64,000 nucleotides of DNA, taken from IMG/VR virus record IMGVR_UViG_3300035193_000030, positions 8,077 to 72,076 of that record. One strand, written 5' to 3'. The position numbers and the translations under genes were made by a program. Under the pieces are notes generated by a model. It was not told the origin of the DNA. It saw only the letters and a list, made by a program, of their open reading frames with translations, and made no database searches. Shown one piece after another: positions 37,558 to 63,304 of this stretch; position 1 is the first letter of the stretch; each line of letters begins with the position of its first letter. This stretch comes from a virus.

Positions 37558-38610
37558 TCATTTTTTTAAGTTTGTATTACAAAGGGGGCATATATCGGGC
37601 ATTTCTGCATCAAATTTTTCTTTTAATTTATTATACCTCACAATATGAAATTCAAGTTCTGATATATTTTGTTCAATTAAACCTATTTTTTCTTTCAACG
37701 TATTAATTTCCTTTTCTATTTGTTTTTTTTCTTCAATTAATTGTAATATCTTATTTACTTCCTTTTCTGCATTTAATAGGTGTTCATAATTTTCAATTTC
37801 TTTCTTATTTTGTTCTATTGGTGTAATATAAAGTCCTATAGTATCTATAATTGAATCTAATTCATTTCTTTTTCCAATCAATAATAATATATAATCTATT
37901 TCATCAGACATCTTTGTTTTTTCTTGGTATTGTAAAAGCTTTTCATTAATTTTCTCAATTTGATTTGTAATTCCCATTAATTTAACTAATGCAATTTCAA
38001 TCTTGTTTTTTTCATTTTCCATCCCTTCTAAAACGTCCACATCAACTTCAAATTTTTCAAGATAATCATATTCTTTTAATTGCTCTTGTTTTATTTCCAA
38101 TTGTTCTTTTTTGTATCTCAATTCTCTATTAATGTCATTTCCCCAACTTTTCACATTTTTTATAGCTTTCCCTATATTATCAATCCTTGCTATTTTATTA
38201 AAATGAGAGGCGACCTCTCCCGGTGTATTGGAAATTAGAAAAGGTTTATCAAATTGTTGTTGTAAATTTATTTCATTCATATTCAGAAAATCATTAATCT
38301 CTTTCGGAACTTCTGTTTTTGTTGCTTCAAACAACATTTTCGTACCAATGTCCAATTCATACCCATTAAATTCCTTTCCTCTTTTTCTTGATACTTTCCC
38401 ATTATTAAAATTAATAGTTACATTGGAATCACCTCCCCAATCCGATCTAAAAGATACATGCAACCGATTATATAATAAAGAACGCAAAGATCGAATGATA
38501 GCGGATTTACCGCTATCAGACGTACCTTGTATAATATTTACCCCTTCAGTTAATTCTAACTTAGAGTATTTATGGCTTTGGAAATTTTTTATTTCAATGC
38601 TTTCTATCAT
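37558..38610 (-). CDS. SbcC/Rad50 N-terminal half ending in a zinc-hook CxxC
   Basis: IKNFQSH, GTSDSGKS Walker A, Q-loop, coiled coil, terminal CPLC. Confidence 0.85.
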   Translation of the reverse strand: MIESIEIKNFQSHKYSKLELTEGVNIIQGTSDSGKSAIIRSLRSLLYNRLHVSFRSDWGGDSNVTINFNNGKVSRKRGKEFNGYELDIGTKMLFEATKTEVPKEINDFLNMNEINLQQQFDKPFLISNTPGEVASHFNKIARIDNIGKAIKNVKSWGNDINRELRYKKEQLEIKQEQLKEYDYLEKFEVDVDVLEGMENEKNKIEIALVKLMGITNQIEKINEKLLQYQEKTKMSDEIDYILLLIGKRNELDSIIDTIGLYITPIEQNKKEIENYEHLLNAEKEVNKILQLIEEKKQIEKEINTLKEKIGLIEQNISELEFHIVRYNKLKEKFDAEMPDICPLCNTNLKK

Positions 38611-38613
38611 CTT

Positions 38614-39075
38614 TTATCTTAACAATTTATATCTTCTATTATATATTCTTTGCTTTGTCGTGAAATCATAACCAATTCCAAACATAAAATCCCAATTCAA
38701 TAAATCCGTTGAAAAAATAAACCATGTTCTTTTAACAATTCTCAATGATGCAATAATATCCATATCTAATTTATACAATTTTAAATTTTCAATTTGATCT
38801 TCATTCCCCCAACGGTGATTATACGCCATACCTAATGAAACATACCCCCTTTGCTTTTCTTGAACTATTCTTCTTCCTATCCCAATTTTAAACTTATAAA
38901 ATGAATCATCTTGGACATATCTTTTTCCCATTGATGAATAAGCACACCATCCGGTGTAAGGACTTGAATACAATCCACATATCTGCTTAAAGTAGATATC
39001 ACTTCCCAAATAAGCTTGACTTTTTCCAATTGCACATAGTAGTGCAAAAATTAATACTACTATTAATTTTTTCAT
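38614..39075 (-). CDS. Signal-peptide protein, possible small outer-membrane beta-barrel
   Basis: MKKLIVVLIFALLCAIGKS-Q; FMFGIGYDF strand. Confidence 0.55.
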   Translation of the reverse strand: MKKLIVVLIFALLCAIGKSQAYLGSDIYFKQICGLYSSPYTGWCAYSSMGKRYVQDDSFYKFKIGIGRRIVQEKQRGYVSLGMAYNHRWGNEDQIENLKLYKLDMDIIASLRIVKRTWFIFSTDLLNWDFMFGIGYDFTTKQRIYNRRYKLLR

Positions 39076-39602
39076 TTTTTTAAAAATTTTAATGTTGGTG
39101 ATTGTTTACTGGCAATAAAATGAATAGCTAAAGCATCGGCAATAGCCTCATTGTGATACTTGAATTTACTCCATTGTATCTTATATAATGTGTCTATTCT
39201 TTCAATCATTTCTTGTTTTGTGGCTGAACGTTTTCCTAAAACAAGTTTTTTAGAATCACCTTCACTATACCATTCTATCCCTATACCTAATGTATCTGAG
39301 ATTGTTTGTATTATTCCCGTTACAACTCCAATCATCACAGCAGCATCAGCATTTTGACTTCCATGGGGGAGTTCTGCTAGTATATACCTAACATCATATC
39401 TTTTTATTACTTCTAATAATTCTTTATTAATTTCACTTATTCTTCTAACTGTACTATCCCCTTTTCTAATCCTATTTTTTTTAAGATCAGGTTTTGTCTG
39501 AATACAATTATGAATAATAATTCTTCCTCTATTCGAAAGAACTACATATCCCCATTCCGTCATACTTGGATCGTTTGTTAATATATTAAATGTATCTATC
39601 AT
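39072..39602 (-). CDS. ruvC: RuvC-like Holliday junction resolvase
   Basis: NDPS...WG, AE, G...ATKQEM, ADALAI. Confidence 0.8.
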   Translation of the reverse strand: MIDTFNILTNDPSMTEWGYVVLSNRGRIIIHNCIQTKPDLKKNRIRKGDSTVRRISEINKELLEVIKRYDVRYILAELPHGSQNADAAVMIGVVTGIIQTISDTLGIGIEWYSEGDSKKLVLGKRSATKQEMIERIDTLYKIQWSKFKYHNEAIADALAIHFIASKQSPTLKFLKK

Positions 39603-49845: not shown

Positions 49846-50640
49846 TTATTTTCCCCATAACATTATGTGTTCTCTCGATGTATAACGAACATTATGTTTA
49901 ATAGCCATTTCAACGGTCATTTGTTGGTTTGCAATTAATTCTTCTCGTGTAGAACCGCAAGGCATTAAAACAACCTGATCTTGTTTTATTAAACCATTTA
50001 TTATAAAATTTAACCCTATCTCATCCCAATCATCTTTACTTGTAATTACAAATTTGAACCATGAATTTTGTAAAGATGATAATTTTTTTAGGACAGATGT
50101 TATGTAACGTCTTTTTGTTAGATTTCCACTTGATGAAAGTTTTGGGGAATTATTCCATATATTAACGAAAGAAATCATCTGAGGCATAGGCATTATAGTA
50201 CATTCGTTTTCAATTTCTATAAATGGTTTAAAATGATATAATGCTTGGAATTTTTGGATAAATTTTATTATCATCTCTTGTTGTAATAATGGACTTCCTC
50301 CAGTAAATACCAAATGTTGCCCTTCCCGTAAATTTGAAATAACATCATATTCTTTCATTAATTCAAATAATTCATCTAATGTGTATGGATTTCCATAACG
50401 CCATACCTCTTTCGTATCACACCATACACAATTTAATGTACAAGATTGAAGTCTAAGGAAAGTACATGGATATCCTACAAAGTTTTCCCCTTGTATTGTA
50501 TTACAAAAAAATTCAGATACCTTTAAAAAATCTGTACTTCCAACATTCCTTTTAAAATTGGGATTCCCTTTAATTATTGTTGTCGGAAATTTCTGTGTCT
50601 GTAAATTGTTCATAACGTGCCATTGTTTTAGGTGTTTCAC
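49846..50640 (-). CDS. queE: 7-carboxy-7-deazaguanine synthase (radical SAM)
   Basis: E.F..TIQGE, FLRLQSCTLNCVWCDT, TGGSPLLQ, SPKL, FKFVI; start probably near 50613. Confidence 0.9.
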   Translation of the reverse strand: MKHLKQWHVMNNLQTQKFPTTIIKGNPNFKRNVGSTDFLKVSEFFCNTIQGENFVGYPCTFLRLQSCTLNCVWCDTKEVWRYGNPYTLDELFELMKEYDVISNLREGQHLVFTGGSPLLQQEMIIKFIQKFQALYHFKPFIEIENECTIMPMPQMISFVNIWNNSPKLSSSGNLTKRRYITSVLKKLSSLQNSWFKFVITSKDDWDEIGLNFIINGLIKQDQVVLMPCGSTREELIANQQMTVEMAIKHNVRYTSREHIMLWGK

Positions 50641-50956
50641 AAACTTCTATTGCATATAATAATGGGAATTGTTCTTTAAATATAGCATATAAATGCAATG
50701 CTATATTTTCAGCAGTGGGATTAAATGTACAAAAATCATTTAAGAATTTATGATCAAATGCTTTATCTAAATACTCTTTAATTGTATCTAGATCACGATA
50801 ATCCATTACAAATCCAATCTTGTCCAAAGCATTTGCCCGTAGTTCTACAATTACGACATAATTATGTCCATGATTTCTCACACAAGGATGATCTTGTGGT
50901 AAATTCAGCAAGCAATGCCCTGCTGAAAATGAAAATTCTTTTCTTATTATAAACAT
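50570..50956 (-). CDS. queD: 6-carboxytetrahydropterin synthase
   Basis: FSAGH, C..NHGHNY, DH..LN, PTAEN.A, ET. Confidence 0.93.
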   Translation of the reverse strand: MFIIRKEFSFSAGHCLLNLPQDHPCVRNHGHNYVVIVELRANALDKIGFVMDYRDLDTIKEYLDKAFDHKFLNDFCTFNPTAENIALHLYAIFKEQFPLLYAIEVCETPKTMARYEQFTDTEISDNNN

Positions 50957-51902: not shown

Positions 51903-51934
51903 CAAATGTATAAAAAATATTTTAAACTACCAAA
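51903..51934 (-). promoter_or_regulatory. Bacteroidota-type promoter
   Basis: TTTG-N20-TACATTTG on the minus strand, matching the -33/-7 consensus. Confidence 0.7.
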
Positions 51935-53465
51935 AACTACCAATAAATGGGCGTCCACACCGAAGGTTTTGCAATACATGAATCTGATTCCGTATATTAA
52001 AATCCCCTTCTCGAATTACAATTTCATTTATTCTCATTATCCCAATTTCTTTTTCTCGCCCGTGTGCATCTTGATTTAATCCATACATTGCTGTAACGTG
52101 CCCGTATTTTCTTTTATCTTCACTAAAATTAGTCATTCTTAACGTATCCTTTGCATAACTTTCCGCATCAGCTTGTGTTGCAGTTAAGATTAGACAATGT
52201 TTTTCCTGACCTAATCCTCTCAATTGCTTCCATATATGGTTTTGTTTATGTCTTTCCTCTTTATAACTATTATCTTCTAATAAATCAGCATAATCTATTA
52301 TAATCACATCAGGAACAAAATTATCTTGTTTTTCCCAAATTCCTAAAATTGCTCTAATTTCATTGACACCTAAAGAACCATTAACGTGAGTAGAAAGACG
52401 AAAGGATCGTTTATTCTTAATAAAAAACTTTTCTATTGCTTCTTTTGCTTCATCTTCGGTTAAAGGCTCTTTTATTTTTATTTTCTTAATAAAAGGTGTT
52501 CCCCAAGGATTTTTATTAAATTCCTTGCAATTAAAACAATTCTTATAATCTTTATTATTTTTATAAACTTCTTTCAATTCTTTCATTGTAATCTTATAAC
52601 GGTAATTTTCATCCTTATTACGAAATAAACCGAAAGAACATTCACGTTCTTCCTTATCACAATTATCCAATTGATTATGTATACAATCTATTACAGGAAT
52701 ATAAAACTCCCCTGTATATTTTTCATTATCTGACTTTCCTTTCAATGAAATGCAAATTCTTTTTAATTGTTGGTGTTCAGTCATATCACCTGCCTGGAAA
52801 AAAGCGACCTTCCTTTTTTGTGTACATGCCTTCTTAGCACATTCAAGTAACCACCAGGTTTTTCCTCTTTTTTCAGGGGCTAAAAACGCTACAAATCCAT
52901 CCCTTACAAATTGATCATTCCAAAAACGTCCTAATTCTTTTGGGAATTGTATTAATACCTCAGTTGATTTATTAAATACCTGCCCTATCTTATTCATCAC
53001 ATTTTCTTTATCTTCAAAATTAATACAATTCCCCATTTCTTTTGATAATGGACGATACCCTGATGCCATATTTTCTGCTTCATAAAGTAAACCTTGTTCG
53101 GCTAACCCTTTTATTTTGTCAGAAAAACGAATTAAATTTCTTTCATTAAAGAATTGTAATGCTTTATCCGTATAATATTCTACATTAAAATCATCATTTA
53201 CATATTCTTCTGACAAGCCAGGTAATATATCTTCTTCTATTTCTTGTATTATTTCTTTTTGCAAGCCTTTACCTGCCTTTGCGTAAAGTATAGATTCAAT
53301 TTCTCTCCCAGGAGCTTTATTGTATTTATTAAAATAATCTAAACACCAACTAGCTAATCTTTTTGCAATACTACTTTCAAATAATGCAACATCCCATTTA
53401 CCTTTTATACGTTGATTAAATTCTGTGGAAACTATTAATCCAATTACTATCTTTCGTTCTATCAT
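51927..53465 (-). CDS. DnaB-like replicative helicase with Cys-rich insertion
   Basis: APEKRGKT, IIIDYADLL, TATQA, SEDKRK. Confidence 0.85.
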   Translation of the reverse strand: MIERKIVIGLIVSTEFNQRIKGKWDVALFESSIAKRLASWCLDYFNKYNKAPGREIESILYAKAGKGLQKEIIQEIEEDILPGLSEEYVNDDFNVEYYTDKALQFFNERNLIRFSDKIKGLAEQGLLYEAENMASGYRPLSKEMGNCINFEDKENVMNKIGQVFNKSTEVLIQFPKELGRFWNDQFVRDGFVAFLAPEKRGKTWWLLECAKKACTQKRKVAFFQAGDMTEHQQLKRICISLKGKSDNEKYTGEFYIPVIDCIHNQLDNCDKEERECSFGLFRNKDENYRYKITMKELKEVYKNNKDYKNCFNCKEFNKNPWGTPFIKKIKIKEPLTEDEAKEAIEKFFIKNKRSFRLSTHVNGSLGVNEIRAILGIWEKQDNFVPDVIIIDYADLLEDNSYKEERHKQNHIWKQLRGLGQEKHCLILTATQADAESYAKDTLRMTNFSEDKRKYGHVTAMYGLNQDAHGREKEIGIMRINEIVIREGDFNIRNQIHVLQNLRCGRPFIGSFW

Positions 53466-54262
53466 ATTGCTAATGGTAATTTATTTAATATCTTCATACT
53501 AACATGTGTATAAATTTCAGTTGTTTTGCTTGAGGAATGCCCTGCAAGTTTCTGAATTATTCTTAAATCCACTCCCTGATCAGTCAAATTTGTAAAACAT
53601 GAATGTCTAAGAAGATGAAAATGATATTCTTCTCCCAAATATCGTTTAACTATTTTATTACAACTTCCGGCAGAATATTTTAAACAATTTTGCCCATTAA
53701 ACAAATATTTCTTTGGTTTATATTGTTTGTAATATTTTCTTAATAATTCCAATAAAGTAGGGGTTAATGGGACTATTCTATCTTTGTTACCCTTCGCTTG
53801 TCTTACATTTATTATCATTCTTTTACTATCAACATCCGTAATTTTTAAATTTATTACCTCTGATACTCTTAATCCTACTGAATAAGATAATGATATTATG
53901 GCTTTATGTTTTAAATTTTTTATTTGTTTTATTGTATTTAATAAATAATCTTTATTAATAACCTGTGGCAAATGTTTTTCTTTCCTTGGGCGTTTAAAAT
54001 CAATTTTGTTATATTTTTTACCCAAAACTTTTTCCCACCCAAATTTTATGGCATTTATGATTTGATTTTGCTGTGAAATGGAAGAATAATCAAAATTTAA
54101 TAAATAATTTTGTATATCATTGGCGTTTAAATGTTGAGGATATTTATTAAATGACTGTAAAAATTTTTCAAAATAATGTCTATATATTTCAATTGTTCTT
54201 TCTGAATAATTGAAATATTTTAATTTTTGAATATAAATTTTTAAAAAATTAGTATGTAACAT
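53462..54262 (-). CDS. Integron-integrase-like tyrosine recombinase
   Basis: YSERTI..Y and QIINAIKF N-domain; YSVGLRVSE, KGNKDRIVP, HLLRHS, IQKLAGHSSSKTTEIYTHV; lacks the IntI-specific insertion. Confidence 0.9.
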   Translation of the reverse strand: MLHTNFLKIYIQKLKYFNYSERTIEIYRHYFEKFLQSFNKYPQHLNANDIQNYLLNFDYSSISQQNQIINAIKFGWEKVLGKKYNKIDFKRPRKEKHLPQVINKDYLLNTIKQIKNLKHKAIISLSYSVGLRVSEVINLKITDVDSKRMIINVRQAKGNKDRIVPLTPTLLELLRKYYKQYKPKKYLFNGQNCLKYSAGSCNKIVKRYLGEEYHFHLLRHSCFTNLTDQGVDLRIIQKLAGHSSSKTTEIYTHVSMKILNKLPLAI

Positions 54263-54289
54263 ATTTAGTACAAATTAATTAGCATTACA

Positions 54290-54317
54290 ATTTTATATAT
54301 AATAGTTCAAGTCAATT
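54290..54317 (+). other. attI-like insertion site
   Basis: tatatataata-G/TTCAAGTCAATT. The 13-mer is the exact reverse complement of 54658-54670, and no hairpin arm precedes it. Confidence 0.7.
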
Positions 54318-54630
54318 ACGCTTCGCTTAGAAATTGTTTAAGTGTGCAATCACATTTATTTGAACCAGCAATACTTCCATTAAAGTTATAATACGGAACT
54401 TGCCCAGTATCTCCACACTTAAAACATTTCACACTACGCTTGACGGTAGCTTCATTTAAAATTTTTATAGCTTTTTTTAAGTTACGAATATTCCTTCCAT
54501 TCTCAATTACATGTTTGTGCCCTATTTCTTTTACAATTCTCTTATCAGACTTAGCCCATTCTTTAGAATCAGAATATTCTTTTTCTAATTCTTTAATTTT
54601 TTGTTCTAATAATTCTATTACATATTTCAT
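54316..54630 (-). CDS. Cassette 1 cargo, hypothetical protein with Cys motif
   Basis: CFKCGDTG...CDC. Confidence 0.65.
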   Translation of the reverse strand: MKYVIELLEQKIKELEKEYSDSKEWAKSDKRIVKEIGHKHVIENGRNIRNLKKAIKILNEATVKRSVKCFKCGDTGQVPYYNFNGSIAGSNKCDCTLKQFLSEA

Positions 54631-54663
54631 AATTAAAATTTTAAATTCTCACTACCTAATTGA

Positions 54664-54815
54664 CTTGAACGGGCGCGGTGTGTCCGCTCTTATCATTCTT
54701 TTCCCGAGCGAAGCGAACGTGCCTCGAACAAGGTGTAAACTGAATTTAATACTTTTCTCTTGCTCGTTCCTCACAAGCGGTATTAAACTACAGTTTCACA
54801 CCGCGCCCGTTACCA
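54664..54815 (+). repeat. attC-like site 1
   Basis: AAC-GGGCGCGGTGTG (54668-54682) ... CACACCGCGCCC-GTT (54797-54811), perfect 15-bp inverted repeat. Confidence 0.85.
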
Positions 54816-54829
54816 ACAATAAAAAATTA

Positions 54830-55207
54830 TTATCGGTGTAAGTAAACATTAGTTCTTTCGGTGTCGCCGTCTCGCTCGAACCATCCAAAATAAACCTTTT
54901 TCTTCCTGCCTAGTACGTGTGGTGCTATCCAATCAATAAATGTATTTAATTCTTCGCTCTCGTAGTTAATATCGGTATGTATGGCAAGTTCCCATCCATT
55001 TTTTACCTCTTTTACATAAGGTTTATCATACCCACCATACCCCATTGTTGCAAACATCTGGTACCATCTTTGTGTGTCAAAAAATGGATTCTTCTCGTAT
55101 GGGGCATCGTGGTTATTTTCAATACATTTATTTAGCCACTCTATCAAACTTTCGGGAGTATTCCTACCAAGGTTTATTTTTAACTTTATCTCAGTTATGT
55201 AGCTCAT
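54830..55207 (-). CDS. Cassette 2 cargo, hypothetical protein
   Basis: Body bounded by GTTACCAAC (54809) and GTTGGTAAC (55219-55227). Confidence 0.75.
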   Translation of the reverse strand: MSYITEIKLKINLGRNTPESLIEWLNKCIENNHDAPYEKNPFFDTQRWYQMFATMGYGGYDKPYVKEVKNGWELAIHTDINYESEELNTFIDWIAPHVLGRKKKVYFGWFERDGDTERTNVYLHR

Positions 55208-55220
55208 AATTTTTAAAAGT

Positions 55221-55348
55221 TGGTAACAATGTACATAGGTAATTTGCCGTGTTTCATTGTTACAGTTGTTTGTAATTCAAATTTATCTCTTTGTTGTTAC
55301 TTAATGCGTCAAGCAGGGGCAAACATACCCATGTACTCAACGTTATGG
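55221..55348 (+). repeat. attC-like site 2
   Basis: AAC-aatGTACATAGGTAATTTGCC ... GGCAAACATACCCATGTAC-tcaac-GTT. Confidence 0.85.
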
Positions 55349-55603
55349 CAAATGCGAGAGCATTATTTTACAAAGTTCATCTGCATCTAATCCATAAACG
55401 CTTATTAGTTCACTACTGTAGTATTCGTTTTTATTATATATCTGGTAAAACTTATCTTTCTCATAGTTATAGTCAATATTATCTAATGTAGGCGAAGCAC
55501 TTACCATAACACTAAATAAATTCCATAACTCAGTTTGTGCCTGTTCGGGGGTCAGTTCTCCGTTTGCAACTTTTGTAAGTAATTCTAACTGTTGTTCTTT
55601 CAT
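55343..55603 (-). CDS. Cassette 3 cargo; starts in the attC loop and stops in the GTTA core
   Basis: Body GTTATGGCAAATG (55342) / CACTTACCATAAC (55498-55510); ORF crosses the AAC junction. Confidence 0.7.
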   Translation of the reverse strand: MKEQQLELLTKVANGELTPEQAQTELWNLFSVMVSASPTLDNIDYNYEKDKFYQIYNKNEYYSSELISVYGLDADELCKIMLSHLP

Positions 55604-55634
55604 ATCGTTACGGTATTTATTATTTTCGTTGTAA
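55504..55634 (+). repeat. attC-like site 3
   Basis: AAC-actAAATAAATTCCATAAC ... GTTACGGTATTTATT-attttc-GTT. Confidence 0.7.
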
Positions 55635-55645
55635 TTAAAACGAAA

Positions 55646-55986
55646 CTACAACACATTATATAAATAATGCGCTGTAGCTCGTATCAACTTTATTCCTCTC
55701 CCACGCACCATTCTAAAGTTTCAATCTTATAACCATATAAAGCCAAATGCCTTGTTACCATATCAGCATACGGTGGCAACATAGGTACTTTACCGCTTTC
55801 AATATCTTTCCATTGGTCATCCCAAGTCTTTTTTTCAGCCTTTAGTTCGGCAATTTTGTCTTTAACTTCTTGTTCGCTTTTCATTTTATTAAGTAATGCC
55901 CACGCTCGCAAACGTGGAGGTTTATATCTCGTATGTAATGTAGTGCGTATGCGAGGGCGCACTATTCATATAATTATTAGTTAGCA
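55646..55986 (+). repeat. attC-like site 4 with an approximately 280-bp ORF-containing loop
   Basis: AAC-acATTATATAAATAATGCGC ... GCGCACTATTCATATAAT-tatta-GTT. Confidence 0.75.
55690..55962 (-). CDS. Hypothetical protein within the attC loop (start probably MKSEQEV)
   Basis: MKSEQEVKDKIAELK...IETLEWCVGEE. Confidence 0.6.
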   Translation of the reverse strand: MRPRIRTTLHTRYKPPRLRAWALLNKMKSEQEVKDKIAELKAEKKTWDDQWKDIESGKVPMLPPYADMVTRHLALYGYKIETLEWCVGEE

Positions 55987-55993
55987 ACAAACA

Positions 55994-56446
55994 CTACCAA
56001 TTCATTCTATCAGCTGTATTGCGGAAAATATCGCAAAGCTGTTCGGATATTTTAAATCGCTCCTTATTAATTTCTATTGATTTTCGAATGTCGCCATCTG
56101 CGTGCCTTTCTGTTGCGGCTTTCCAATCAAACAACATCTCCACCAAATCAAACAAATCAAATCCATTCACACCATTTTCATAATGCTCTGGGTGATGACT
56201 ATTATTTGCATAGTGGTGGTCAAGTGCTACTTTCAAGCCCTTTAAAAACTCTTTGTATTCTTCACTTCCATAAGTACATCCTTTAAGTTTGGGTGTGTAC
56301 TCATCAAACAATTCCTTTTCAGGGCTTTCAAGTTTGGAACTGTCGTGCTTTCCCGCCCTAATTAATAACTCGCTTACTGCTGTAATTAAAAGTTCATTAA
56401 CTCTTTTTATGTGCTGTAGAGTATCAGCTTTGCTATCGTACTGCAT
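55994..56446 (-). CDS. Cassette cargo, HD-like DUF5662-family protein
   Basis: HI..V, HDSSK, HHY..NSHHPEHY, EML.DW.AA..RH; body GTTAGCAAC (55980) / GTTGCTAAC (56480-56488). Confidence 0.75.
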   Translation of the reverse strand: MQYDSKADTLQHIKRVNELLITAVSELLIRAGKHDSSKLESPEKELFDEYTPKLKGCTYGSEEYKEFLKGLKVALDHHYANNSHHPEHYENGVNGFDLFDLVEMLFDWKAATERHADGDIRKSIEINKERFKISEQLCDIFRNTADRMNW

Positions 56447-56746
56447 ATAATTAAATTTTGTAATTAATAATCCGTGTCAGTTGCTAACAAGTTACATATT
56501 GCAAAAGCCATGAAACATTGTAGCACTTAATCGGTCGATTGCAGTTGGCTTTCGACAACATGTAACCGTCCCGTTATTCGCAATTCCCCCTTCCCTGCAA
56601 TCCATCTAGGAATTGCGAATAATGAACCGCGAATATATCCCTCCCACAACCGAAACTTACCTTTCCAACTCAAAGAACGCGCGTCTGGAACAGACGAATA
56701 ACTATGAATATAGATAAGTTTCATTGGCTATGAATTGGGATAAAAA

Positions 56747-56929
56747 TTATTCCATATCACGCTCAATAATCGGGCTATTATTAATCAAGTCGCTAATAAT
56801 TTCAGCGTGAAACTTTTCATCATTATCCTGCATGGCGTAAAGCCCTCGCTCTAAAACCTTGTGAAATGCTACTACCACATCTGACGATTCATATTCCTTT
56901 GATGTCTCTAAATAAGCTGTAAATTCCAT
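56747..56929 (-). CDS. Cassette cargo, hypothetical protein
   Basis: AT-rich leader and protein-like composition. Confidence 0.55.
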   Translation of the reverse strand: MEFTAYLETSKEYESSDVVVAFHKVLERGLYAMQDNDEKFHAEIISDLINNSPIIERDME

Positions 56930-57000
56930 AATTTTTATTTTAGTTTAATAATTAAAGTCGTATATCATAACCAATTAAACCTTCCCATATTCGCGGTTCA

Positions 57001-57264
57001 TTAGAATGCATTAAAGCGGTTGTTAATTATGTTGTCGTAATCTTCATCTCGCTTTGCCTCCCCGCCTATTTTATCATAAATCCATTTTTCATCTATGCCC
57101 TTAAATATCAAACACGGAGCACCTTCTTTATCTGGGTATCTGTGATGTCTGCTTTTTTTAACAGATGTAACTAAATCTATATTTATAGGGTTATTTTCAT
57201 ATCCCTCAAAATAACTCCCAACGCTCGTATTACATTTTATAAATGTTGCCATAAAATAACGCAC
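57001..57264 (-). CDS. Cassette cargo, hypothetical protein (start probably MATFIK)
   Basis: PINIDLV motif; stop lies in the degenerate ATTAG core. Confidence 0.65.
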   Translation of the reverse strand: MRYFMATFIKCNTSVGSYFEGYENNPINIDLVTSVKKSRHHRYPDKEGAPCLIFKGIDEKWIYDKIGGEAKRDEDYDNIINNRFNAF

Positions 57265-57390
57265 CCTAACAATAAATATAAAACAGTGGGTGTTAGGGTG
57301 TCTAATTAGCCCGATCTGCTTAAGTTACATTAATTCAATTTTCAAAGTTAGTGGGTAAAATCCCACCGTTTCATATTCGGAACGTTGTGC
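57264..57390 (+). repeat. attC-like site
   Basis: CCCTAAC-aataAATATAAAACAGTGGG ... CCCACCGTTTCATATT-cggaac-GTTGTGC. Confidence 0.85.
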
Positions 57391-57391
57391 T

Positions 57392-57658
57392 TCATTTGCC
57401 AACCCGCTCGAATAAATCACAAGTCAATCCATCACCGAAGCACTCGTCTTTATCACTATTTGCATCATTTCCACATCTACCAAAATCAGATGGTTCAAGT
57501 TCATCTTCGTACTCATCTTGGTAGCTTGTAAACCACTTACACCATTGGCAGGTTTTCTTCCATTCTGTTTCTTCTCTTATGTTTGTTTCCATCTTTTTTA
57601 GTTTGCATTGCTCACCCGCATTGGTTTTTTCAAAACCATTAAGATAAATACTTTTCAT
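57392..57658 (-). CDS. Small Cys-rich protein (start probably METNIREE)
   Basis: CQWCKWF...GRC...TCDLFE. Confidence 0.6.
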   Translation of the reverse strand: MKSIYLNGFEKTNAGEQCKLKKMETNIREETEWKKTCQWCKWFTSYQDEYEDELEPSDFGRCGNDANSDKDECFGDGLTCDLFERVGK

Positions 57659-58625
57659 ATCTCATTTCAGCTTTATTCCTATCCCAAACACTATCCCATA
57701 AAGGATTCCAGTTTACATAATCATATATTTCATATATTTCATCAAAATCATTTGGGAAGTCTTTATAATCACAAATTATATTTGTTGCTATTTTTACACC
57801 GATAGCTTTTAAATGCTGTGCCATACTTATAGTATAAAAAGTTGCTTCAACATTCCTATGCATGTCTCTTAAAACATCTGCATTATTACTTTGTATCGGG
57901 CAATGGAATATTTCTAACACATTGCATTTTGCAGCGTTAAGTAATTCACCTTTGCACTGTATGGCAACCTGTGGCTCAATATTTCTTATAGATATTTTCT
58001 TATTTTTTTCGATTGCTAAATTACACCAATCTTTTATTTGCTGTACTGTCGGACTATCTGCAATTAAAACAACATCGTTAAACTTCATGAACTCATTTAC
58101 AAGCCTATTGTCAATATCATATTTCTCGTGCTTTCCTCTGGTCATTTTTATAGTACAATAAGTGCAATTGAATGGACATCCTTTCCCTATTCGTAATGGA
58201 TATTTATTCCTGAAAATATTCCCTTGTTCAAGTTCCTTGTCAGTTTCCTTGAAGTCTTTTATCCAAAATGGTTTTGCAAATTCAACAAGTTTTTTATTGT
58301 TAATTTGTTGATACGTACATCGCATTTGTTCCAATCTTCCAATATCTTCAGGAAATGCTATATCGTTTCGTTGTGCCAAACAGCCAGATATAAACACATT
58401 TTTATTTGGATATTTGTCTCTAAACTTTTCAGCAGTATTGAAGTCGTTCAATATTGCAAGGTCAGTAACTTGGCATGATAAAACAATTATATTCTCAGCT
58501 TCTTTTTCATCGGTTGTAACTAATTCTATATTTGCATTAGCCCAACTTAAAGCATCAGCCCATACACTCATACAGGCAGTGCAAATAAAATAATGTTTCC
58601 CGTTTAAATTTTTAATATTTTCCAT
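57639..58625 (-). CDS. MiaB/MtaB-like radical SAM methylthiotransferase lacking TRAM
   Basis: N-domain Cys triad (TAC, LSCQV, SGCLA), GCPFNCTYC...TRG, HCPIQS....L..M.R, TNII; start taken at MENIK. Confidence 0.75.
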   Translation of the reverse strand: MENIKNLNGKHYFICTACMSVWADALSWANANIELVTTDEKEAENIIVLSCQVTDLAILNDFNTAEKFRDKYPNKNVFISGCLAQRNDIAFPEDIGRLEQMRCTYQQINNKKLVEFAKPFWIKDFKETDKELEQGNIFRNKYPLRIGKGCPFNCTYCTIKMTRGKHEKYDIDNRLVNEFMKFNDVVLIADSPTVQQIKDWCNLAIEKNKKISIRNIEPQVAIQCKGELLNAAKCNVLEIFHCPIQSNNADVLRDMHRNVEATFYTISMAQHLKAIGVKIATNIICDYKDFPNDFDEIYEIYDYVNWNPLWDSVWDRNKAEMRYEKYLS

Positions 58626-58705
58626 CCCTATTTTTTCTTTTTTTACGTTAGTACTTCGATTCATCGTTTCTGCGTATTTGTCAGCACATTTCATACCTCC
58701 GTCCG

Positions 58706-58873
58706 TTAGGCAACATAAAAATGCCACCTACCCTCATCGTCTTCTTGGTATCCCATTGCCATGAATATACATTGGTAATTATTTCTACCATTATACTGGT
58801 TCATTAAATCCAGCGCACCCCTCATTATATTAACTTTCTTTGTTGCTGGAAGTGTTTCAAACTTATTTATCAT
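58706..58873 (-). CDS. 55-aa cassette cargo (not in the ORF track)
   Basis: MINKFETLPATKKVNIMRGALDLMNQYNGR...WHFYVA; stop within GTTAGGC at 58705. Confidence 0.55.
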   Translation of the reverse strand: MINKFETLPATKKVNIMRGALDLMNQYNGRNNYQCIFMAMGYQEDDEGRWHFYVA

Positions 58874-58959
58874 CTTTCATTTTGTTGTAATTTTAAAATT
58901 TATATCTCGTATTTAAAACGACAACGAGAGTTTACCGTCAAACGTTAGCAACAATAAGG

Positions 58960-59196
58960 TCAATCCTTAATCTTGCTGTGTTCATTCCAATATTCTTCGA
59001 AGTATTCTTTGCTGCATAGTACACCCCAACTCATTCCACAAGGAGTTGTGTATATATCCATACAACTTGCCAATTTTTTAGCAACCCATTCTTGTACTTC
59101 TTCTCTATCTCTTGGTTTTTTCCTTTTCCCAAACCATTCATGTTCGTGAATTAAAATTGTCAAGTTGTAAAGTGTATTTATTTGTTCTTGCGTCAT
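58960..59196 (-). CDS. Cassette cargo, hypothetical protein
   Basis: Body GTTAGCAAC (58944) / GTTGCTAAA (59208-59216). Confidence 0.7.
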   Translation of the reverse strand: MTQEQINTLYNLTILIHEHEWFGKRKKPRDREEVQEWVAKKLASCMDIYTTPCGMSWGVLCSKEYFEEYWNEHSKIKD

Positions 59197-59209
59197 AATA
59201 AATTACTGT

Positions 59210-59303
59210 TGCTAAAAAGGTATATACGTAATACCCTATTAAGGTTTGTACTAATTTTTAAAGTTTCTGCATTGGGTACTACGTATATACCCAATCGTAG
59301 ATC
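59210..59303 (+). repeat. attC-like site with both cores mutated
   Basis: AAA-aaGGTATATACGTAATACCC ... GGGTACTACGTATATACC-caatc-GT(-)AGATCG. Confidence 0.75.
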
Positions 59304-59548
59304 GAATTAAGTTCTAAATAATGCAATGGAACTTCTCGAAAGTCTGTTCCTTCTACACCATTCCAAATTGCTTTCTGTTCTATTAATGCTCTTGGTTCTT
59401 TATATATTTTGCCAGTTTTGCCACACTCAAATATCGGATAGTAAGCAATTTTCCATTTTCCTTTGCCATCCATTTTGTATGTGTTTCCAATTTTGTGAGC
59501 TTTCCATAAAGGATGCTCTAATGATTTTTGTAATTCCATGTTTATCAA
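59279..59548 (-). CDS. Cassette cargo, hypothetical protein
   Basis: Body GTAGATCGAATTAA (59297) / TTAACTCGCTCTAAC (59549-59563). Confidence 0.65.
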   Translation of the reverse strand: MINMELQKSLEHPLWKAHKIGNTYKMDGKGKWKIAYYPIFECGKTGKIYKEPRALIEQKAIWNGVEGTDFREVPLHYLELNSIYDWVYT

Positions 59549-59967
59549 TTAACTCGCTCTAACACAAATTAGGCACAATAAATTACTGCACTTTCGGTTC
59601 TATTTTAACCCTACCGTCTGTTAATGCTTCAAATAAATTGTTAAGTTCTTCACATAGCCTAGTTACGTGAGCCGAACAAAGCATATAGGCAATATTTTGG
59701 GATAAGCTTTCTCTTAATACCATAAAAATTATTGCTTTATCAGCAGGTATATTATACACCATACCAATGTACAGAACCATCCTACGGCATAACTAAACCT
59801 TGATGGTTGTTCATTACTAAATATTGCAAGTAGAATACTTAAAATAGCGCATGCTATTACGATGTAACACGTTATTTCCATAATTTTTATTGCTTTAAAT
59901 GTTAATAATTAAATTTATATTTCAATTTTACTTTGTATTCCCAAATCCTCCCCATATTCTCTGGTTC

Positions 59968-60191
59968 GTTATAAAAACAATTAAAGCGGAATCCCTAATT
60001 TTTGTTCTTATTGTGGTCTTGTAGCAGATAAGGTACTCACTTGCGTTTTCTTGAATCTGCCCTCACACGCTAAATTTAGACTGAATGGGCTTTATCTATG
60101 GTTTTACGTCCAGTTCCGTCAACCAACCTAGTAGGCGTTCATTACGCGCGCTTGCCTACGCACCATTGTTTCCGCTTTAAAAGTTTATAAC
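59968..60191. ncRNA. ORF-less cassette with GC-rich multi-hairpin sequence (candidate structured RNA)
   Basis: Bounded by GTTATAAAAACAATTAAAGCGGAA / TTCCGCTTTAAAAGTTTATAAC; internal GCAGAT/ATCTGC and GTAGGC/GCCTAC stems. Confidence 0.4.
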
Positions 60192-60427
60192 ACAATACTA
60201 CGTATCGGGTAAAAATCAACTTTATCCGTTTGCGAAGAATAAAATTAACTATATTTTTCTAAGCATGTTTTTTAATTGTTCAACTGCCATATAATACGTT
60301 ACCCCATAAAACGCACCATCTTTTTCATAGTTTTCAAGCGCTCTTAAAGCCGTTTCCATTGCTTCTTTAATTTTTTTATTCATATCCATAATTTTTCAAA
60401 TTCCGTAAAATTACATTCCCAGGTCCG

Positions 60428-60589
60428 TTACTCCTTTTTTGTTTCTACATTTAAAATTTCTATTTTATACCTTGCATACTGCTCCATTAATGTGCATCCT
60501 ATATTAAGTAAGTTCTTCGATCGTAATTTAGCTCTAATTCCAAATTTATCACTTGGACTAACATTAATCAAATATTCTTTAGCATTCAT
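60428..60589 (-). CDS. 53-aa cassette cargo (not in the ORF track)
   Basis: MNAKEYL...LMEQYA...; stop within gtccGTTA. Confidence 0.5.
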   Translation of the reverse strand: MNAKEYLINVSPSDKFGIRAKLRSKNLLNIGCTLMEQYARYKIEILNVETKKE

Positions 60590-60607
60590 ATCTTTTAATT
60601 TGATAAG

Positions 60608-61216
60608 TTATTCCCATTTAATATTTTTCTCCCAATCATAAGCTTTTGCCATTGCTTCTATGTCTTGCCTCATTTCTTTCTCTCCCAATTCAGTTAGCTT
60701 TGCATGCCATCTTTTTATCATTTCAGCATCTATATAATCAGTCGGCAACATTTCGCTAACATGCGGTAATAATTCATGTGCTTGTGGTAATCTCGAAGGT
60801 TCCACCAAGGCACTTTTAGCATAATAATAAGCCTTTACTACTTCTCTATCAAACGCAGTTTCTTTAGTGCTACAGTTATTAATTCTATGACTGAGTCGTA
60901 AAGCGTTTTCTATTGTTTTAAACTTCCATTTTGGTATTGTTATCATTTCTTCTGCCATTGAACAATATTTTTTTATCACATCTTGAACCACCTGTTCAAT
61001 ACCTTCTATTTCTAATAATTTAATTTGGCCTCCACCAACAAATTCAGCATTATACATTTCAGCATGTCCATCATCATATCCTCTTTGATAGACTTCTTTG
61101 ATTAAATTAACCAAAATACTGTTCATAATATCAGATATATGTAATTTTTTATCTGTGTTATTAAGTTCTTTATTCTTATTATTTTTATTCATATATTTTG
61201 AATTTTTGTGTTTCAA
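60608..61216 (-). CDS. Mosaic hypothetical protein reading through degenerate attC remnants
   Basis: KLHISDIMNS and LLPHVSEMLP are translations of AAC-junction sequences (TTCGCTAAC at 60752-60760). Confidence 0.55.
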   Translation of the reverse strand: MKHKNSKYMNKNNKNKELNNTDKKLHISDIMNSILVNLIKEVYQRGYDDGHAEMYNAEFVGGGQIKLLEIEGIEQVVQDVIKKYCSMAEEMITIPKWKFKTIENALRLSHRINNCSTKETAFDREVVKAYYYAKSALVEPSRLPQAHELLPHVSEMLPTDYIDAEMIKRWHAKLTELGEKEMRQDIEAMAKAYDWEKNIKWE

Positions 61217-61262
61217 TTTAATTTAGTGATAGGTACTTGCCATACTTACTACCATTTAGCGG

Positions 61263-61589
61263 TCATTGTCTATCATACAGTAATTTAACTTTAATACTAA
61301 TCATAAGTTCATCAATAGCTTTATCCTCTGTTTCTGCTTCAACCACCATTCCGGGTATATCTTTCAAATAAGCTAACCAAACATTATCATGCCTTTCGGT
61401 AACCAATTCAGGCAACGAACCTCTAACATCAAATATAGCACAGTTGGCGTTAGCGGTTTGCCTCCTTTTTCTACATTTATCACAAATTCTAATAGGTGTC
61501 ATTATATCTGATATTTTTACATAATAAAATGATGTTATTGTATAAACTTCGCAATCATAACAATTACTAAAAAAATTACATTTTCCCAT
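61263..61589 (-). CDS. Cassette cargo with C-terminal HicB-like domain
   Basis: WLAYLKDIPGMVVEAETEDKAIDEL; crosses the CTCTAAC junction at 61421-61427; start taken at MGKCNF. Confidence 0.55.
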   Translation of the reverse strand: MGKCNFFSNCYDCEVYTITSFYYVKISDIMTPIRICDKCRKRRQTANANCAIFDVRGSLPELVTERHDNVWLAYLKDIPGMVVEAETEDKAIDELMISIKVKLLYDRQ

Positions 61590-61602
61590 ATTCTCTGGCT
61601 CG

Positions 61603-61899
61603 TTAGCAATCAGTTTGCCTATCAAATCTTTTTGCGCAAAATGGGCAACAACTATATGCTTTATTATTTTCATAAATCTTACAAGCAGGGCAAACCGCCA
61701 CCCCATCGCTCAACTCCTCTATAGGTAATTTGCCGTTCTCTGAATTAGCCTCATTCGCTTGCTTTAGTATTTTTAAACATATTTTAAGATCTAAAACACG
61801 TTTACTATATTCCGTTCTCAATACGTCATCCTTTGTGCTTTTATAGTTATCTTTAAGGATATCTATTTCTGCTTCCAATAATTCAATTGTATATTTCAA
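61603..61899 (-). CDS. Cassette cargo with Zn-ribbon; starts in the attC loop
   Basis: CPAC...CPFC; stop within GTTAGC at 61602. Confidence 0.6.
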   Translation of the reverse strand: MKYTIELLEAEIDILKDNYKSTKDDVLRTEYSKRVLDLKICLKILKQANEANSENGKLPIEELSDGVAVCPACKIYENNKAYSCCPFCAKRFDRQTDC

Positions 61900-61997
61900 T
61901 GTTGCTCACTATTTAGTTATTATTAAATTCTGTTTTTCAATTCTAATCCGGTACAGTGCGTTGGGTAAAACATACCCATACCACCAACTCGTTATCG
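61708..61997 (+). repeat. Distal attC-like site, same family as site 2
   Basis: Shares ATAGGTAATTTGCCGT and AAACATACCCAT arms with 55221-55348; ends GTTATCG at 61991. Confidence 0.7.
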
Positions 61998-62049
61998 CTA
62001 ATTGCCGCACAGGTTAAAATGGCTTATATATTTTTTAATTGTCTTTTTT

Positions 62050-62856
62050 TCAAGTAGATTGTTTCACATAATCAGGAATATTATTATAAATTTCTTGTTC
62101 GTTATTAATATCATCTTTAAACATATGCAATTTCATTTCTTTGGGATCATCCAGCCAACGATATTGATTTAACCATGTGGAAGCAAGTGGAATAAACTTT
62201 GAGACAGACCAACGTTCTGTTTTCTTTTGTAATATAATTGCTTTAACCACCTGCCTCCAAGTAGGACAATATTTCTTTTTTGATGGAGAATTACATAAAT
62301 TAATCCAAGCTTTTAAAGCACTCCCTTCTTTATCTTTTCGTGGGTATAATTTCCAAAAGTTTTTAAAGTCATTTTCGACAATATTGTATTTTAATACTTT
62401 GTTATTATTTACTTTGTTATTATTTATATTATATGCCCTACCAAAATCCGTAGGACTAGACCTACCAAAATCCGTAGGACTAGACCTACCAAAATCCGTA
62501 GGTCTAGTGTTTATGCGGGTTAGCAAATGTTCAACATGGATAAAATAATGCTCTTTTGCTGGTGTACCAACCATTTTAGTGGAAATTATATTTTCATTGA
62601 TTAATTGTTTTTTGCACTTACGTAATTTGTGTAAAGATAGCCCAATTTGTTTTGTTTGGTTCTTATGGAGAATATAAAACCAACCTTCTTTTAATCGGTT
62701 GTGTTCTTTAAAATAAAAATATTTGTCTATTAAATTTGATAAAAAAAGGGCAGCTTCCACTCCAAAATAATTAATTAATGTTTTATTGACAATCAGATAG
62801 TTTGTTGTATTAAGTGATTGTAATAATAAATCTTCTTTAATAATATAGTTTTTCAT
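62050..62856 (-). CDS. Replication initiator (lambda O/DnaD-like organisation)
   Basis: N-terminal wHTH, iteron-coded linker, FKNFWKLYPRK...A..AW and PLASTWLNQ.RW.D. Confidence 0.8.
   Translation of the reverse strand: MKNYIIKEDLLLQSLNTTNYLIVNKTLINYFGVEAALFLSNLIDKYFYFKEHNRLKEGWFYILHKNQTKQIGLSLHKLRKCKKQLINENIISTKMVGTPAKEHYFIHVEHLLTRINTRPTDFGRSSPTDFGRSSPTDFGRAYNINNNKVNNNKVLKYNIVENDFKNFWKLYPRKDKEGSALKAWINLCNSPSKKKYCPTWRQVVKAIILQKKTERWSVSKFIPLASTWLNQYRWLDDPKEMKLHMFKDDINNEQEIYNNIPDYVKQST
62437..62508. repeat. Three 24-bp iterons (putative origin)
   Basis: cctaccaaaatccgtagg-actaga twice, plus a third copy ending tctagt; each quasi-palindromic, beside an AT-rich tract. Confidence 0.75.
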
Positions 62857-62865
62857 AGAATTTAA

Positions 62866-63129
62866 TTACCAATCCCATTCAGATTCTTGCACTTTAAATC
62901 CATTTTCTTTTAATAATTGTATTGCTTTCGGGGCACAATTTTCACATAAATCAAGTTCGTATTTATCTCCACTTCCACCTTCTGGATATGCTGTTCCTGT
63001 TTTGTATTCTAACTCAAAATTAAAAGCGTCATACTGCTTATTTTTTATTATTATACCACATTTATCACATAACTTGTAACATTTCGTTACAACTTCTGTC
63101 ATTTGCATTTTTGTTTTTCTTATTTCCAT
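62866..63129 (-). CDS. Small Zn-finger protein
   Basis: CDKCG...DLCENC. Confidence 0.7.
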   Translation of the reverse strand: MEIRKTKMQMTEVVTKCYKLCDKCGIIIKNKQYDAFNFELEYKTGTAYPEGGSGDKYELDLCENCAPKAIQLLKENGFKVQESEWDW

Positions 63130-63272
63130 AATATCTAAGTTAATTAAAAAATAAAAACCCGAATGGGGAAGGTGCTGCTTCTATTCCATTCGGGTGAAAA
63201 TATATAAAATTTAGCAATTGGAATTAAATATTTTACGCAGCACCGCATTTTAGACATTTTTAAAAACCATTG

Positions 63273-63304
63273 TAAAAGTACAAATAAATTTAAACTTAAA
63301 CAAA
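63273..63304 (-). promoter_or_regulatory. Bacteroidota-type promoter facing the initiator and cassette array
   Basis: TTTG-N20-TACTTTTA. Confidence 0.5.

Follow-up and report, generated by a model that had tools for sequence, protein, structure and literature searches.

Integrons are bacterial gene-capture platforms that depend on a specialized enzyme, IntI, whose characteristic insertion binds extrahelical bases of the attC site; to our knowledge, the examples found so far in phages are fragments or small clusters of sites without an integrase. Here we analyse a 64,000-nt stretch of DNA (the window; positions 8077-72076 of the 72,076-bp IMG/VR virus record IMGVR_UViG_3300035193_000030), in which about 19 small genes, split by attC-like folded sites, lie next to the gene of a tyrosine recombinase, and which probably holds a phage-borne, integron-like gene-cassette array. 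In the account of Qi et al. 2023, phage genomes held three complete integrons, one cassette-less integron-integrase and 17 clusters of attC sites lacking an integrase (CALIN), and the attC cluster of the Polaribacter phage P12002L comprised two methyltransferases and a site that recombined with attI1 under IntI1 (PMC9892861). The array described here resembles that Flavobacteriia phage CALIN in its attC-like sites, but the latter is described as two divergent sites with no phage recombinase (PMC9892861), whereas the present family has up to 14-17 sites, a recombinase clade of its own and a junction beside it. Bacteroidota, the host group of the present phage, are listed among the phyla with integrons (PMC9668308, PMC8618304). 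Our literature search returned no description of arrays with this Xer-type recombinase clade, this junction or inverted cargo.

Like integrons, including the chromosomal type with an inverted integrase, the family comprises short, mostly single-gene units set in one orientation beside a tyrosine recombinase and separated by imperfect palindromes of 48-200 nt with TAAC/GTTA ends, covarying inner arms and a variable loop. Unit ends are mutually complementary, the first box often contains the stop codon, folding favours one of the two strands, a conserved junction lies by the recombinase gene, and homogeneous sites accompany unrelated cargo. Unlike in integrons, the end stems measure 16 bp rather than 7, the phage cargo shares its strand with the folded sites and faces the recombinase, and the distinguishing features are fixed G.T wobbles and an internal loop of 4 nt versus 1 nt. 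A likeness also exists to the promoter early stem-loops (PeSLs) of T4-type phages, repeated intergenic hairpins that bound small accessory genes in hyperplastic regions and act as points of gene exchange; PeSLs are described as regulatory units that homologous recombination exchanges and that have no recombinase of their own (PMC2839356, PMC4122927), whereas the strand bias seen here is independent of the direction of transcription and site polarity is tied to the recombinase. The nearest relatives of that recombinase in sequence and structure are the Xer enzymes (XerC/D, archaeal XerA), which share its two-domain architecture and the absence of an arm-binding domain but use one short double-stranded dif site per replicon instead of arrays of long folded sites.

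The best NCBIfam match of the 266-aa recombinase is XerA_Arch (181.7 bits, cutoff 220); it scores 135.4 bits against XerC (cutoff 335), 134.9 against XerD (cutoff 330), 139.9 against integrase_gron (TIGR02249, cutoff 265) and 91.1 against PRK15417 (cutoff 435), below every curated Xer and integron-integrase family cutoff tested. The integrase_gron match is split into two stretches, the better of which stops at position 180 of the 315 of the profile, and both skip the IntI-specific insertion, as in four relatives. In a bacterial relative (L049), two PRK15417 stretches likewise leave profile positions ~200-257 unmatched; this enzyme is the sole one above an Xer cutoff (XerA_Arch, 223.3 versus 220). 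The closest solved structures by sequence are 4a8e, 5hxy and 2a3v. With its scores below the Xer cutoffs, and with an array of long palindromes as partner DNA instead of a single dif-type site, the enzyme does not belong to the Xer families proper either; and since it is devoid of the IntI-specific domain, we refer to the system as integron-like and not as a canonical integron. The IntI insertion is itself reported as "not fully conserved" within the integron-like subgroup of a published classification (PMC8138268).

Recombinases 50-70% identical to that of the window were found in 19 IMG/VR contigs (the comparison loci throughout are mostly metagenome contigs), in most of which TAACG is enriched upstream of the recombinase gene on the recombinase strand (24 versus 1 in the contig L006, 26 versus 6 in L008). 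Upstream of the window's recombinase, the motif occurs 18 times on the coding strand and once on the other; 16 of the 29 minus-strand copies in the 64 kb fall within 54263-62049, 12% of the window. A TAACG-anchored position-weight model, refined from TAACG contexts, selected 86 sites in 20 sources from the 539 TAACG present on both strands, and all 86 are on the recombinase strand. In 73 of them, the bases that follow TAAC-G and a further 3-4 nt pair with a second arm followed by GTT, mostly as T-GTTA, which gives the site the general form TAAC-G-arm...arm-T-GTTA; lengths cluster at 48-49, 85-90, 122-127 and 190-202 nt. Such sites are shared by 18 related viral contigs and 17 Bacteroidota-type genome loci, and L006 and L008 have 14-17 well-formed sites each. 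Pooled column statistics over all TAACG gave no signal until copies within genes had been removed. The 48-49-nt subtype, with fully covarying arms of 12-13 bp and an invariant 9-nt loop, CGTTTTAAT, occurs at L003 9546, L005 8025, L006 4510 and 7926, L012 6227, L013 9116 and L016 8982, usually within ~1 kb of the recombinase.

Among 26 aligned sites, the TAAC...GTTA ends are invariant in 25-26, and the arms between them covary: paired cells amount to 95.0%, versus 67.8% in shuffled alignments and at most 45.4% with slid partners, and cells changed on both sides number 142 versus 48 after shuffling. Compensatory changes affect 16 of the 18 inner pairs, and one pair is G.U in 23 of the 26 sites. 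The sites thus display the imperfect inverted repeats, conserved structure, little conserved sequence and AAC/GTT ends typical of attC. A covariance model built from this alignment (R1) has four matches in the whole 72-kb genome, all on the minus strand and all inside the array. On 26 viral loci it yielded 72 matches, 22 of them training sequences, and 71 lie on the recombinase strand; six of these loci, whose recombinases are just 25-35% identical to that of the window and which served as a negative control, had none. In the Cellulophaga phage Ingeline (recombinase 37% identical), no match was better than E 0.17.

Among species-representative genomes, a scan turned up 244 recombinase relatives, of which 80 loci were kept; R1 has 47 matches in these. 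Eleven (in L034, L038 and L078) lie upstream of the recombinase on its strand, the layout of the phage loci, while the other 36, in 17 loci, are on the opposite strand and all downstream of it. When the TAACG strand is followed in the 5' to 3' direction, the array comes first and the recombinase second in every case, whichever the arrangement. The orientation of the cargo is what differs: in phage arrays, 42 of 46 inter-site intervals have their longest open frame in sense to the TAACG strand, and at the 36 bacterial-type sites 65 of 68 flanks have it in antisense. Cargo antisense to the recombinogenic strand, the integron arrangement, is therefore that of the bacterial relatives and not that of the phages, which bears out the proposal, made in a sequence-only reading of the window, that its cassette genes are inverted. 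That reading had also placed every credible cassette gene on the minus strand, and a greedy set of open reading frames (ORFs) for 54316-62049 agrees, with 20 on the minus strand and a sole plus-strand ORF (55229-55390, 53 aa) overlapping one of them. Mispairs within sites are biased towards G.T over A.C, in a ratio of 171:20 at phage sites and 93:26 at the genome loci, these two being scored alike, and of 72:5 at the 36 bacterial-type sites. The favoured strand accordingly follows the site rather than transcription, which argues for a folded substrate at the level of DNA. The bacterial-type locus L058 has nine ORFs of at least 86 aa on the recombinase strand. No cargo was found to be shared between phage and bacterial arrays beyond recombinase tails and one 45-aa match. 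Many of the contigs carrying the genome loci (L034-L113) stop ~0.2-1 kb past the recombinase gene, as expected if repeated sites break assemblies, so that bacterial arrays are probably under-sampled.

The units are further defined by their ends. In phage arrays, the 12 nt past the GTTA of one site and the 12 nt before the TAAC of the next are paired at 8.75 of 12 positions on average (n=48), versus 5.82 when both extensions belong to one site (n=73) and 5.84 for pairs drawn at random (n=4754; ORF-flanking versus random, p 5e-14); in bacterial arrays the ORF-flanking value is 9.07 (n=15) versus 5.76 for random pairs (n=1204). Since these extensions are complementary between successive sites, each ORF is enclosed in its own inverted repeat of ~16 nt, clear examples in the window being ORFs 54316-54630, 54830-55207, 55994-56446, 56747-56929 and the body of 55343-55603. 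Cassette ends are thus mutually complementary in phage and bacterial arrays alike, the relation that would be expected, by analogy with integron cassettes, if units circularised with a crossover in the end box. Neither the strand bias, nor the polarity, nor these ORF-flanking repeats follow from the way in which the site models were constructed.

At the recombinase end, the last unit of the phage arrays closes with TAAC followed by a conserved TATTATATATAAA instead of G and an arm. In 15 sources, the window among them, this junction motif (aligned in 14 sequences) lies with at most two mismatches 45-95 nt ahead of the recombinase start codon; none was seen in the bacterial-type loci. In 11 phage-locus sources, a site lies 340-620 nt before the recombinase start. 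Orphan copies of the junction, accompanied by the first ~40-90 nt of the recombinase gene, occur at L002 1235 and 13623, L018 15806 and L028 18844, which suggests several arrays per genome or lost recombinase genes; in L028, only an internally deleted recombinase gene is left, before the helicase gene and in the same genomic frame. Traces of past exchange coincide with the boxes. A 297-nt unit of L058 is duplicated at 98% identity, the homology being bounded exactly by TAACG on both sides, and of the homology blocks that loci share, 23 begin at a site in each of the two partners (with runs of 30-140 nt), two end at one and one spans one. Hairpins more than 90% identical stand between unrelated ORFs in L006, L008, L019 and the window. 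One gene (76% identity over 587 nt) is located inside the array in L001 (8845-9431) and directly downstream of the recombinase in L006 (9202-9788).

Along the coding strand, the proposed cassette unit would consist of G, a spacer, the 5' arm, the loop, the 3' arm, T, GTTA, a 12-nt extension, the ORF, the complementary 12-nt extension and TAAC. Upon circularisation, its ends would close into one long folded site with the anatomy of attC, namely an outer stem made of TAAC/GTTA and the extensions, an asymmetric internal loop, an inner arm stem and a terminal loop. We infer that the Xer/IntI-type recombinase acts on such folded single strands, specifically on the strand reading TAACG, and inserts units from circular intermediates at the TAAC/TATTATATATAAA junction ahead of its own gene. 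As the cargo lies on the folding strand and points at the recombinase, a Pc-type promoter at the recombinase end could not drive it; transcripts would have to start at phage promoters further upstream and reach the cargo by read-through in the direction of the recombinase. Sites would in this way enter reading frames, giving rise to site-encoded leaders and in-frame joins. More tentatively, and with doubts on our part, the family may represent a separate integron lineage with Xer-type recombinases free of the IntI domain, widespread in Bacteroidota-type bacteria and their phages, whose phage version translates sense-strand sites to shuffle leaders and bodies in frame. The 16-nt inverted repeats may even let bodies flip, which would account for sense cargo in phages versus antisense cargo in bacteria.

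Several results bear on the entry of sites into reading frames. All five junction peptides which the sequence-only reading took for translated sites map to site elements. NLFSVMVSA (55496-55522) spans a GTTA box, and the 10 nt after it are complementary to the 10 nt that precede the TAAC at 55342, which with the boxes makes a 14-bp stem; CAIFDVRGSLP (61410-61442) and LLPHVSEMLP (60743-60772) each contain GTTAG; KLHISDIMNS (61118-61147) opens with an 18-nt stretch that recurs unchanged as the 3' arm of an L006 site; and KLPIEELSDG (61702-61731) overlaps a 15-nt copy of the 3' arm of site 55224-55345. The sites can also mark joins between protein modules. The 32-residue leader of ORF 55343-55603 is common to 11 database proteins with at least four unrelated C-terminal bodies, the break between leader and body falls at the residues encoded by GTTA-TG, and an independent contig (L116) has the same boxes with complementary extensions of its own. 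ORF 60608-61216 is a three-part mosaic, successive thirds of which are matched by the database proteins P0004, P0002 and P0003; the last two thirds meet at the GTTAGC box 60755-60760, where the window and P0002 part ways, and P0003 combines the segment upstream of the GTTAG box of ORF 61263-61589 with the tail of ORF 60608-61216.

Stop codons, too, were found where they had been placed, in the GTTA core, coding-strand TAAC(G/T) being GTTA on the plus strand: the TAA stops of the ORFs ending at 55343, 58706, 60428 and 61603 are the TAA of TAACG, that at 60608 sits in TAACT, and that at 57001 lies 2 nt before GAAC. Across the family, the upstream ORF stops at the TAA of TAAC in 25 of 73 complete sites, 12 nt upstream of it in 16 and 10 nt upstream in 7. 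The claim that ORFs often begin inside the loop stands only in part. Three ORFs of the window start within a site, after TAACG at 61605, 58708 and 55610, of which only 58708 is among the 86 sites; over the family as a whole, an ATG in the 5' arm opens at least 60 codons at just 3 of the 86 sites, which confines the phenomenon to the window and one leader family.

In the window, the array (54263-62049) lies between the genes of a replication initiator and of the recombinase and, with its borders, is laid out as follows.

51927-53465, minus strand: DnaB-like helicase gene, beyond the recombinase.
53462-54262, minus strand: 266-aa tyrosine recombinase of Xer/IntI type without arm-binding domain (Pfam Phage_integrase 3.9e-35, Phage_int_SAM_4 3.2e-10).
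54292-54308, minus strand: attI-like junction, GAAC then TATTATATATAAA, ~45 nt before the recombinase ATG (motif alignment).
54305-54670, minus strand: recombinase-proximal cassette body with ORF 54316-54630, in a 16-bp inverted repeat (GTTC and extension...extension and GAAC; 16 of 17 stem positions paired).
54667-54812, minus strand: 146-nt site with TAAC, G+C-rich 12-bp arms, a 114-nt loop and GTTC (the 199-nt spacer folds at -65.3 kcal/mol).
54809-55227, minus strand: cassette body with ORF 54830-55207 (PHROG 4334), in 22-nt flanking inverted repeats, 86% complementary.
55224-55345, minus strand: 122-nt site TAACG...GTTA (R1 33.4 bits, E 3e-4).
55343-55603, minus strand: ORF with 32 site-encoded first residues, between TAACG (55606-55610) and GTTA (55507-55510); past GTTA, the body is enclosed by a 14-bp stem that forms with 55342-55355.
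55649-55983, minus strand: 335-nt palindrome with 24-nt arms, TAAC...GTTG, and ORF 55690-55884 in the loop.
55980-56488, minus strand: cassette body with ORF 55994-56446 (DUF5662), in a 15-nt inverted repeat (GTTA and extension...extension and TAAC).
56485-56576, minus strand: 92-nt site TAACG...GTTA (R1 32.4 bits; belonged to the R1 training set).
56620-56636 and 56987-57003: perfect 17-nt inverted repeat.
56699-56999, minus strand: 301-nt palindrome with 28-nt arms, GAAC...GTTA, and ORF 56747-56929 in the loop.
57267-57387, minus strand: 121-nt site CAAC-G...GTTA (R1 32.4 bits, E 5e-4).
57392-58708, minus strand: two cargo ORFs, 57392-57658 and the radical-SAM/UPF0004 ORF 57639-58694, a possible start of the latter being the ATG of the conserved 5'-arm motif, 14 nt past TAACG 58704-58708, for which no 3' arm was found.
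58943-58947, minus strand: TAACG half-site with a consensus 5' extension, downstream of ORF 58960-59196.
59213-59299, minus strand: best-preserved hairpin, 87 nt (R1 71.9 bits, E 4.5e-12, outside the training set), aligned with sites of L006, L008 and L019 (alignment A1); ORF 59279-59539 terminates within its 5' arm.
59674-59971, minus strand: 298-nt palindrome with 23-nt arms, TAACG...GTTC, and ORF 59729-59881 in the loop.
59975-60186, minus strand: 212-nt palindrome with 19-nt arms, AAAC...GTTT, and no ORF.
60426-60610, minus strand: ORF 60428-60589 flanked by two half-sites, TAACG 60426-60430, which holds its own stop, and TAACT 60606-60610, which holds that of ORF 60608-61216.
60608-61216, minus strand: mosaic ORF with an 18-nt 3'-arm relic at 61130-61147.
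61263-61605, minus strand: ORF 61263-61589 with an internal GTTAG box (61423-61427) and a possible start at a 5'-arm ATG 16 nt past TAACG 61601-61605.
61603-61994, minus strand: distal unit with TAACG 61990-61994, a 5' arm and a 3'-arm-like 15-mer (61721-61735), the arm pairing being weak; ORF 61603-61899 starts in its loop.
62050-62856, minus strand: replication-initiator gene, conserved outer boundary of the array (PHROG 270, 3.5e-18).

Three of the four palindromes of 212-335 nt in the array thus carry an ORF in the loop.

The same hairpins could be regulatory or RNA punctuation of an early operon, either PeSL-like terminator/promoter modules or RNase processing stems, with genes shuffled by homologous recombination and the recombinase an unrelated neighbour engaged, for instance, in multimer resolution or lysogeny. 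Phage sites are indeed intergenic on the transcribed strand, 10-50 nt before the next start codon, their G.T wobbles would be G.U pairs in RNA, and whole hairpins are common to phages with differing flanking ORFs, as described for PeSLs (PMC2839356, PMC4122927). We nevertheless find this explanation distinctly improbable, as the 17 bacterial-type loci keep the G.T bias at sites antisense to their genes, both arrangements keep the sites in one polarity with respect to the recombinase, arrays stop at a conserved junction 45-95 nt before the recombinase gene, the duplicated L058 unit is bounded exactly by TAACG, and the complementary extensions flanking the ORFs have no obvious regulatory rationale. 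A sigma-70-type promoter scan, the model for which does not cover Bacteroidota promoters, was moreover at chance (54 sites versus 52.9 in shuffles), and no Rfam family reached its gathering score in the whole window, a search of 54200-62100 with E up to 5 returning just two chance-level matches to eukaryotic small nuclear/nucleolar RNAs. That the palindromes arose by chance, or are replication-origin iterons of an A+T-rich replication module, is barely credible. The array does lie between replication-initiator and helicase genes, and a loose scan for TAAC...GTTA palindromes without the weight model was too noisy to be used (127 on the plus strand, 85 on the minus strand and 46 in shuffled sequence); against this stand covariation far above its controls, strict strand specificity (86 of 86 and 71 of 72) and the occurrence of the same sites beside related recombinases in bacterial chromosomes, outside phage replication modules.

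The array might also be a fossil, built in an ancestor or acquired from a bacterial array and now decaying, with ORFs extended or fused across sites and a recombinase that has another function or none. This account, which we deem unlikely, fits everything in the window and differs from the cassette-array interpretation only in present activity. Only four of ~15 site-like elements in the window pass R1 (59213-59299, 55224-55345, 57267-57387 and 56485-56576), at least five half-sites have no 3' arm (58704, 58943, 60426, 60606 and 61601), the best hairpin has both end boxes mutated, ORF 60608-61216 fuses three modules found as separate proteins elsewhere, and L028 retains just a deleted recombinase gene. 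The recombinase ORF of the window is, on the other hand, intact and can be aligned over its whole length with Xer-type enzymes, the C-terminal part with the catalytic tyrosine included; the attI-like junction and four full sites have been kept; and the relatives L006 and L008 have 14-17 well-formed sites. The window's array is accordingly partly decayed and may be inactive, and with so many sites degraded much of it may be fixed.

These signs of decay weigh against a functioning cassette array, as do the following points. The recombinase is missing the additional domain that IntI enzymes carry around patch III, and its scores fall short of the integron-integrase cutoffs. One and the same set of loci yielded the sites, the weight model and R1, so that pairing within sites is partly by construction. 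The canonical integron R-box 7-mer GTTRRRY is not enriched in the window (90 found versus 134 expected). In the phage loci taken by themselves, folding strand and mRNA strand coincide, and an RNA role may therefore exist there; likewise, the attI-like junction could equally be the recombinase promoter. Near-identical hairpins amid unrelated ORFs on both sides are more than a crossover at TAACG only can produce and call for exchange at GTTA as well or for homogenisation of sites. The R1 matches on the coding strand of P12002L, at 38879-38936, 38035-38090, 32223-32281 and 39122-39245 (the first two flank the methyltransferase gene gp54), tie the family to published experiments, and in that respect speak for the array, only on the presumption that they are the attC sites of Qi et al. 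Finally, neither recombination products nor circular cassettes nor cassettes of variable presence came to light for this phage. Of the public runs listed with the sequence, one is of DNA, probably the source sample, and none of RNA; in the DNA run, a single contig runs across 53400-62466 with no differences. A candidate joint in that run (55531 to 60758) was not counted; it has 27 letters on one side, at 85% likeness.

If the cassette-array interpretation is correct, the phage would own a platform built around a simpler Xer-type recombinase, implying that capture of cassettes with folded sites needs no IntI domain, and a mechanism would be at hand by which small orphan genes come and go in the early regions of phages, genes likely to serve host takeover or counter-defence. 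With cargo on the folding strand, recombination sites can enter reading frames, and new chimeric proteins can arise in this way. Since the cultured phage P12002L carries sites of the family, the idea lends itself to bench tests.

As to the remainder of the locus, the carrier is a phage of Bacteroidota-type bacteria whose sequence is A+T-rich (G+C ~31% in the window), with nearly all genes on the minus strand from 34435 to the window end. Eighteen of the 19 ORFs searched between the initiator and recombinase genes had no PHROG match; against Pfam, three were above cutoff, including DUF5662 and radical SAM/UPF0004, and one more gave a weak, sub-cutoff match. Megablast of 53400-62100 against phage records found no match, and a search for transfer and transfer-messenger RNA genes found none. 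The first and last cargo ORFs (54316-54630 and 61603-61899) are distant paralogues (26% identity, pairwise E 6e-6) sharing an N-terminal MKY.IELLE start and a Cys-rich tail; a homologue search with ORF 61603-61899 returned only itself. Two ORFs at 49846-50956 resemble the radical-SAM enzyme 7-carboxy-7-deazaguanine synthase and 6-carboxytetrahydropterin synthase, enzymes of deazaguanine modification.

Homologues of the initiator gene in L001, L003, L010 and L028 are situated 4-5 kb upstream of the recombinase or helicase gene. Within the initiator gene itself, three tandem 24-nt repeats (62437-62508) encode a repeated 8-residue peptide and are possibly iteron-like. On the minus strand at 63146-63195, 17 nt before ORF 62866-63129, is a strong hairpin followed by a T-run and resembling a terminator; it lies downstream of the promoter that the sequence-only reading had proposed at 63273-63304, so that a transcript from there would meet the hairpin first. 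The contig end (63780-63999) consists of a run of 6/12-nt units (12 copies of a 97-nt register), whose open frames read as Gly-Leu or Ser-Trp/Arg repeats and continue past the window edge.

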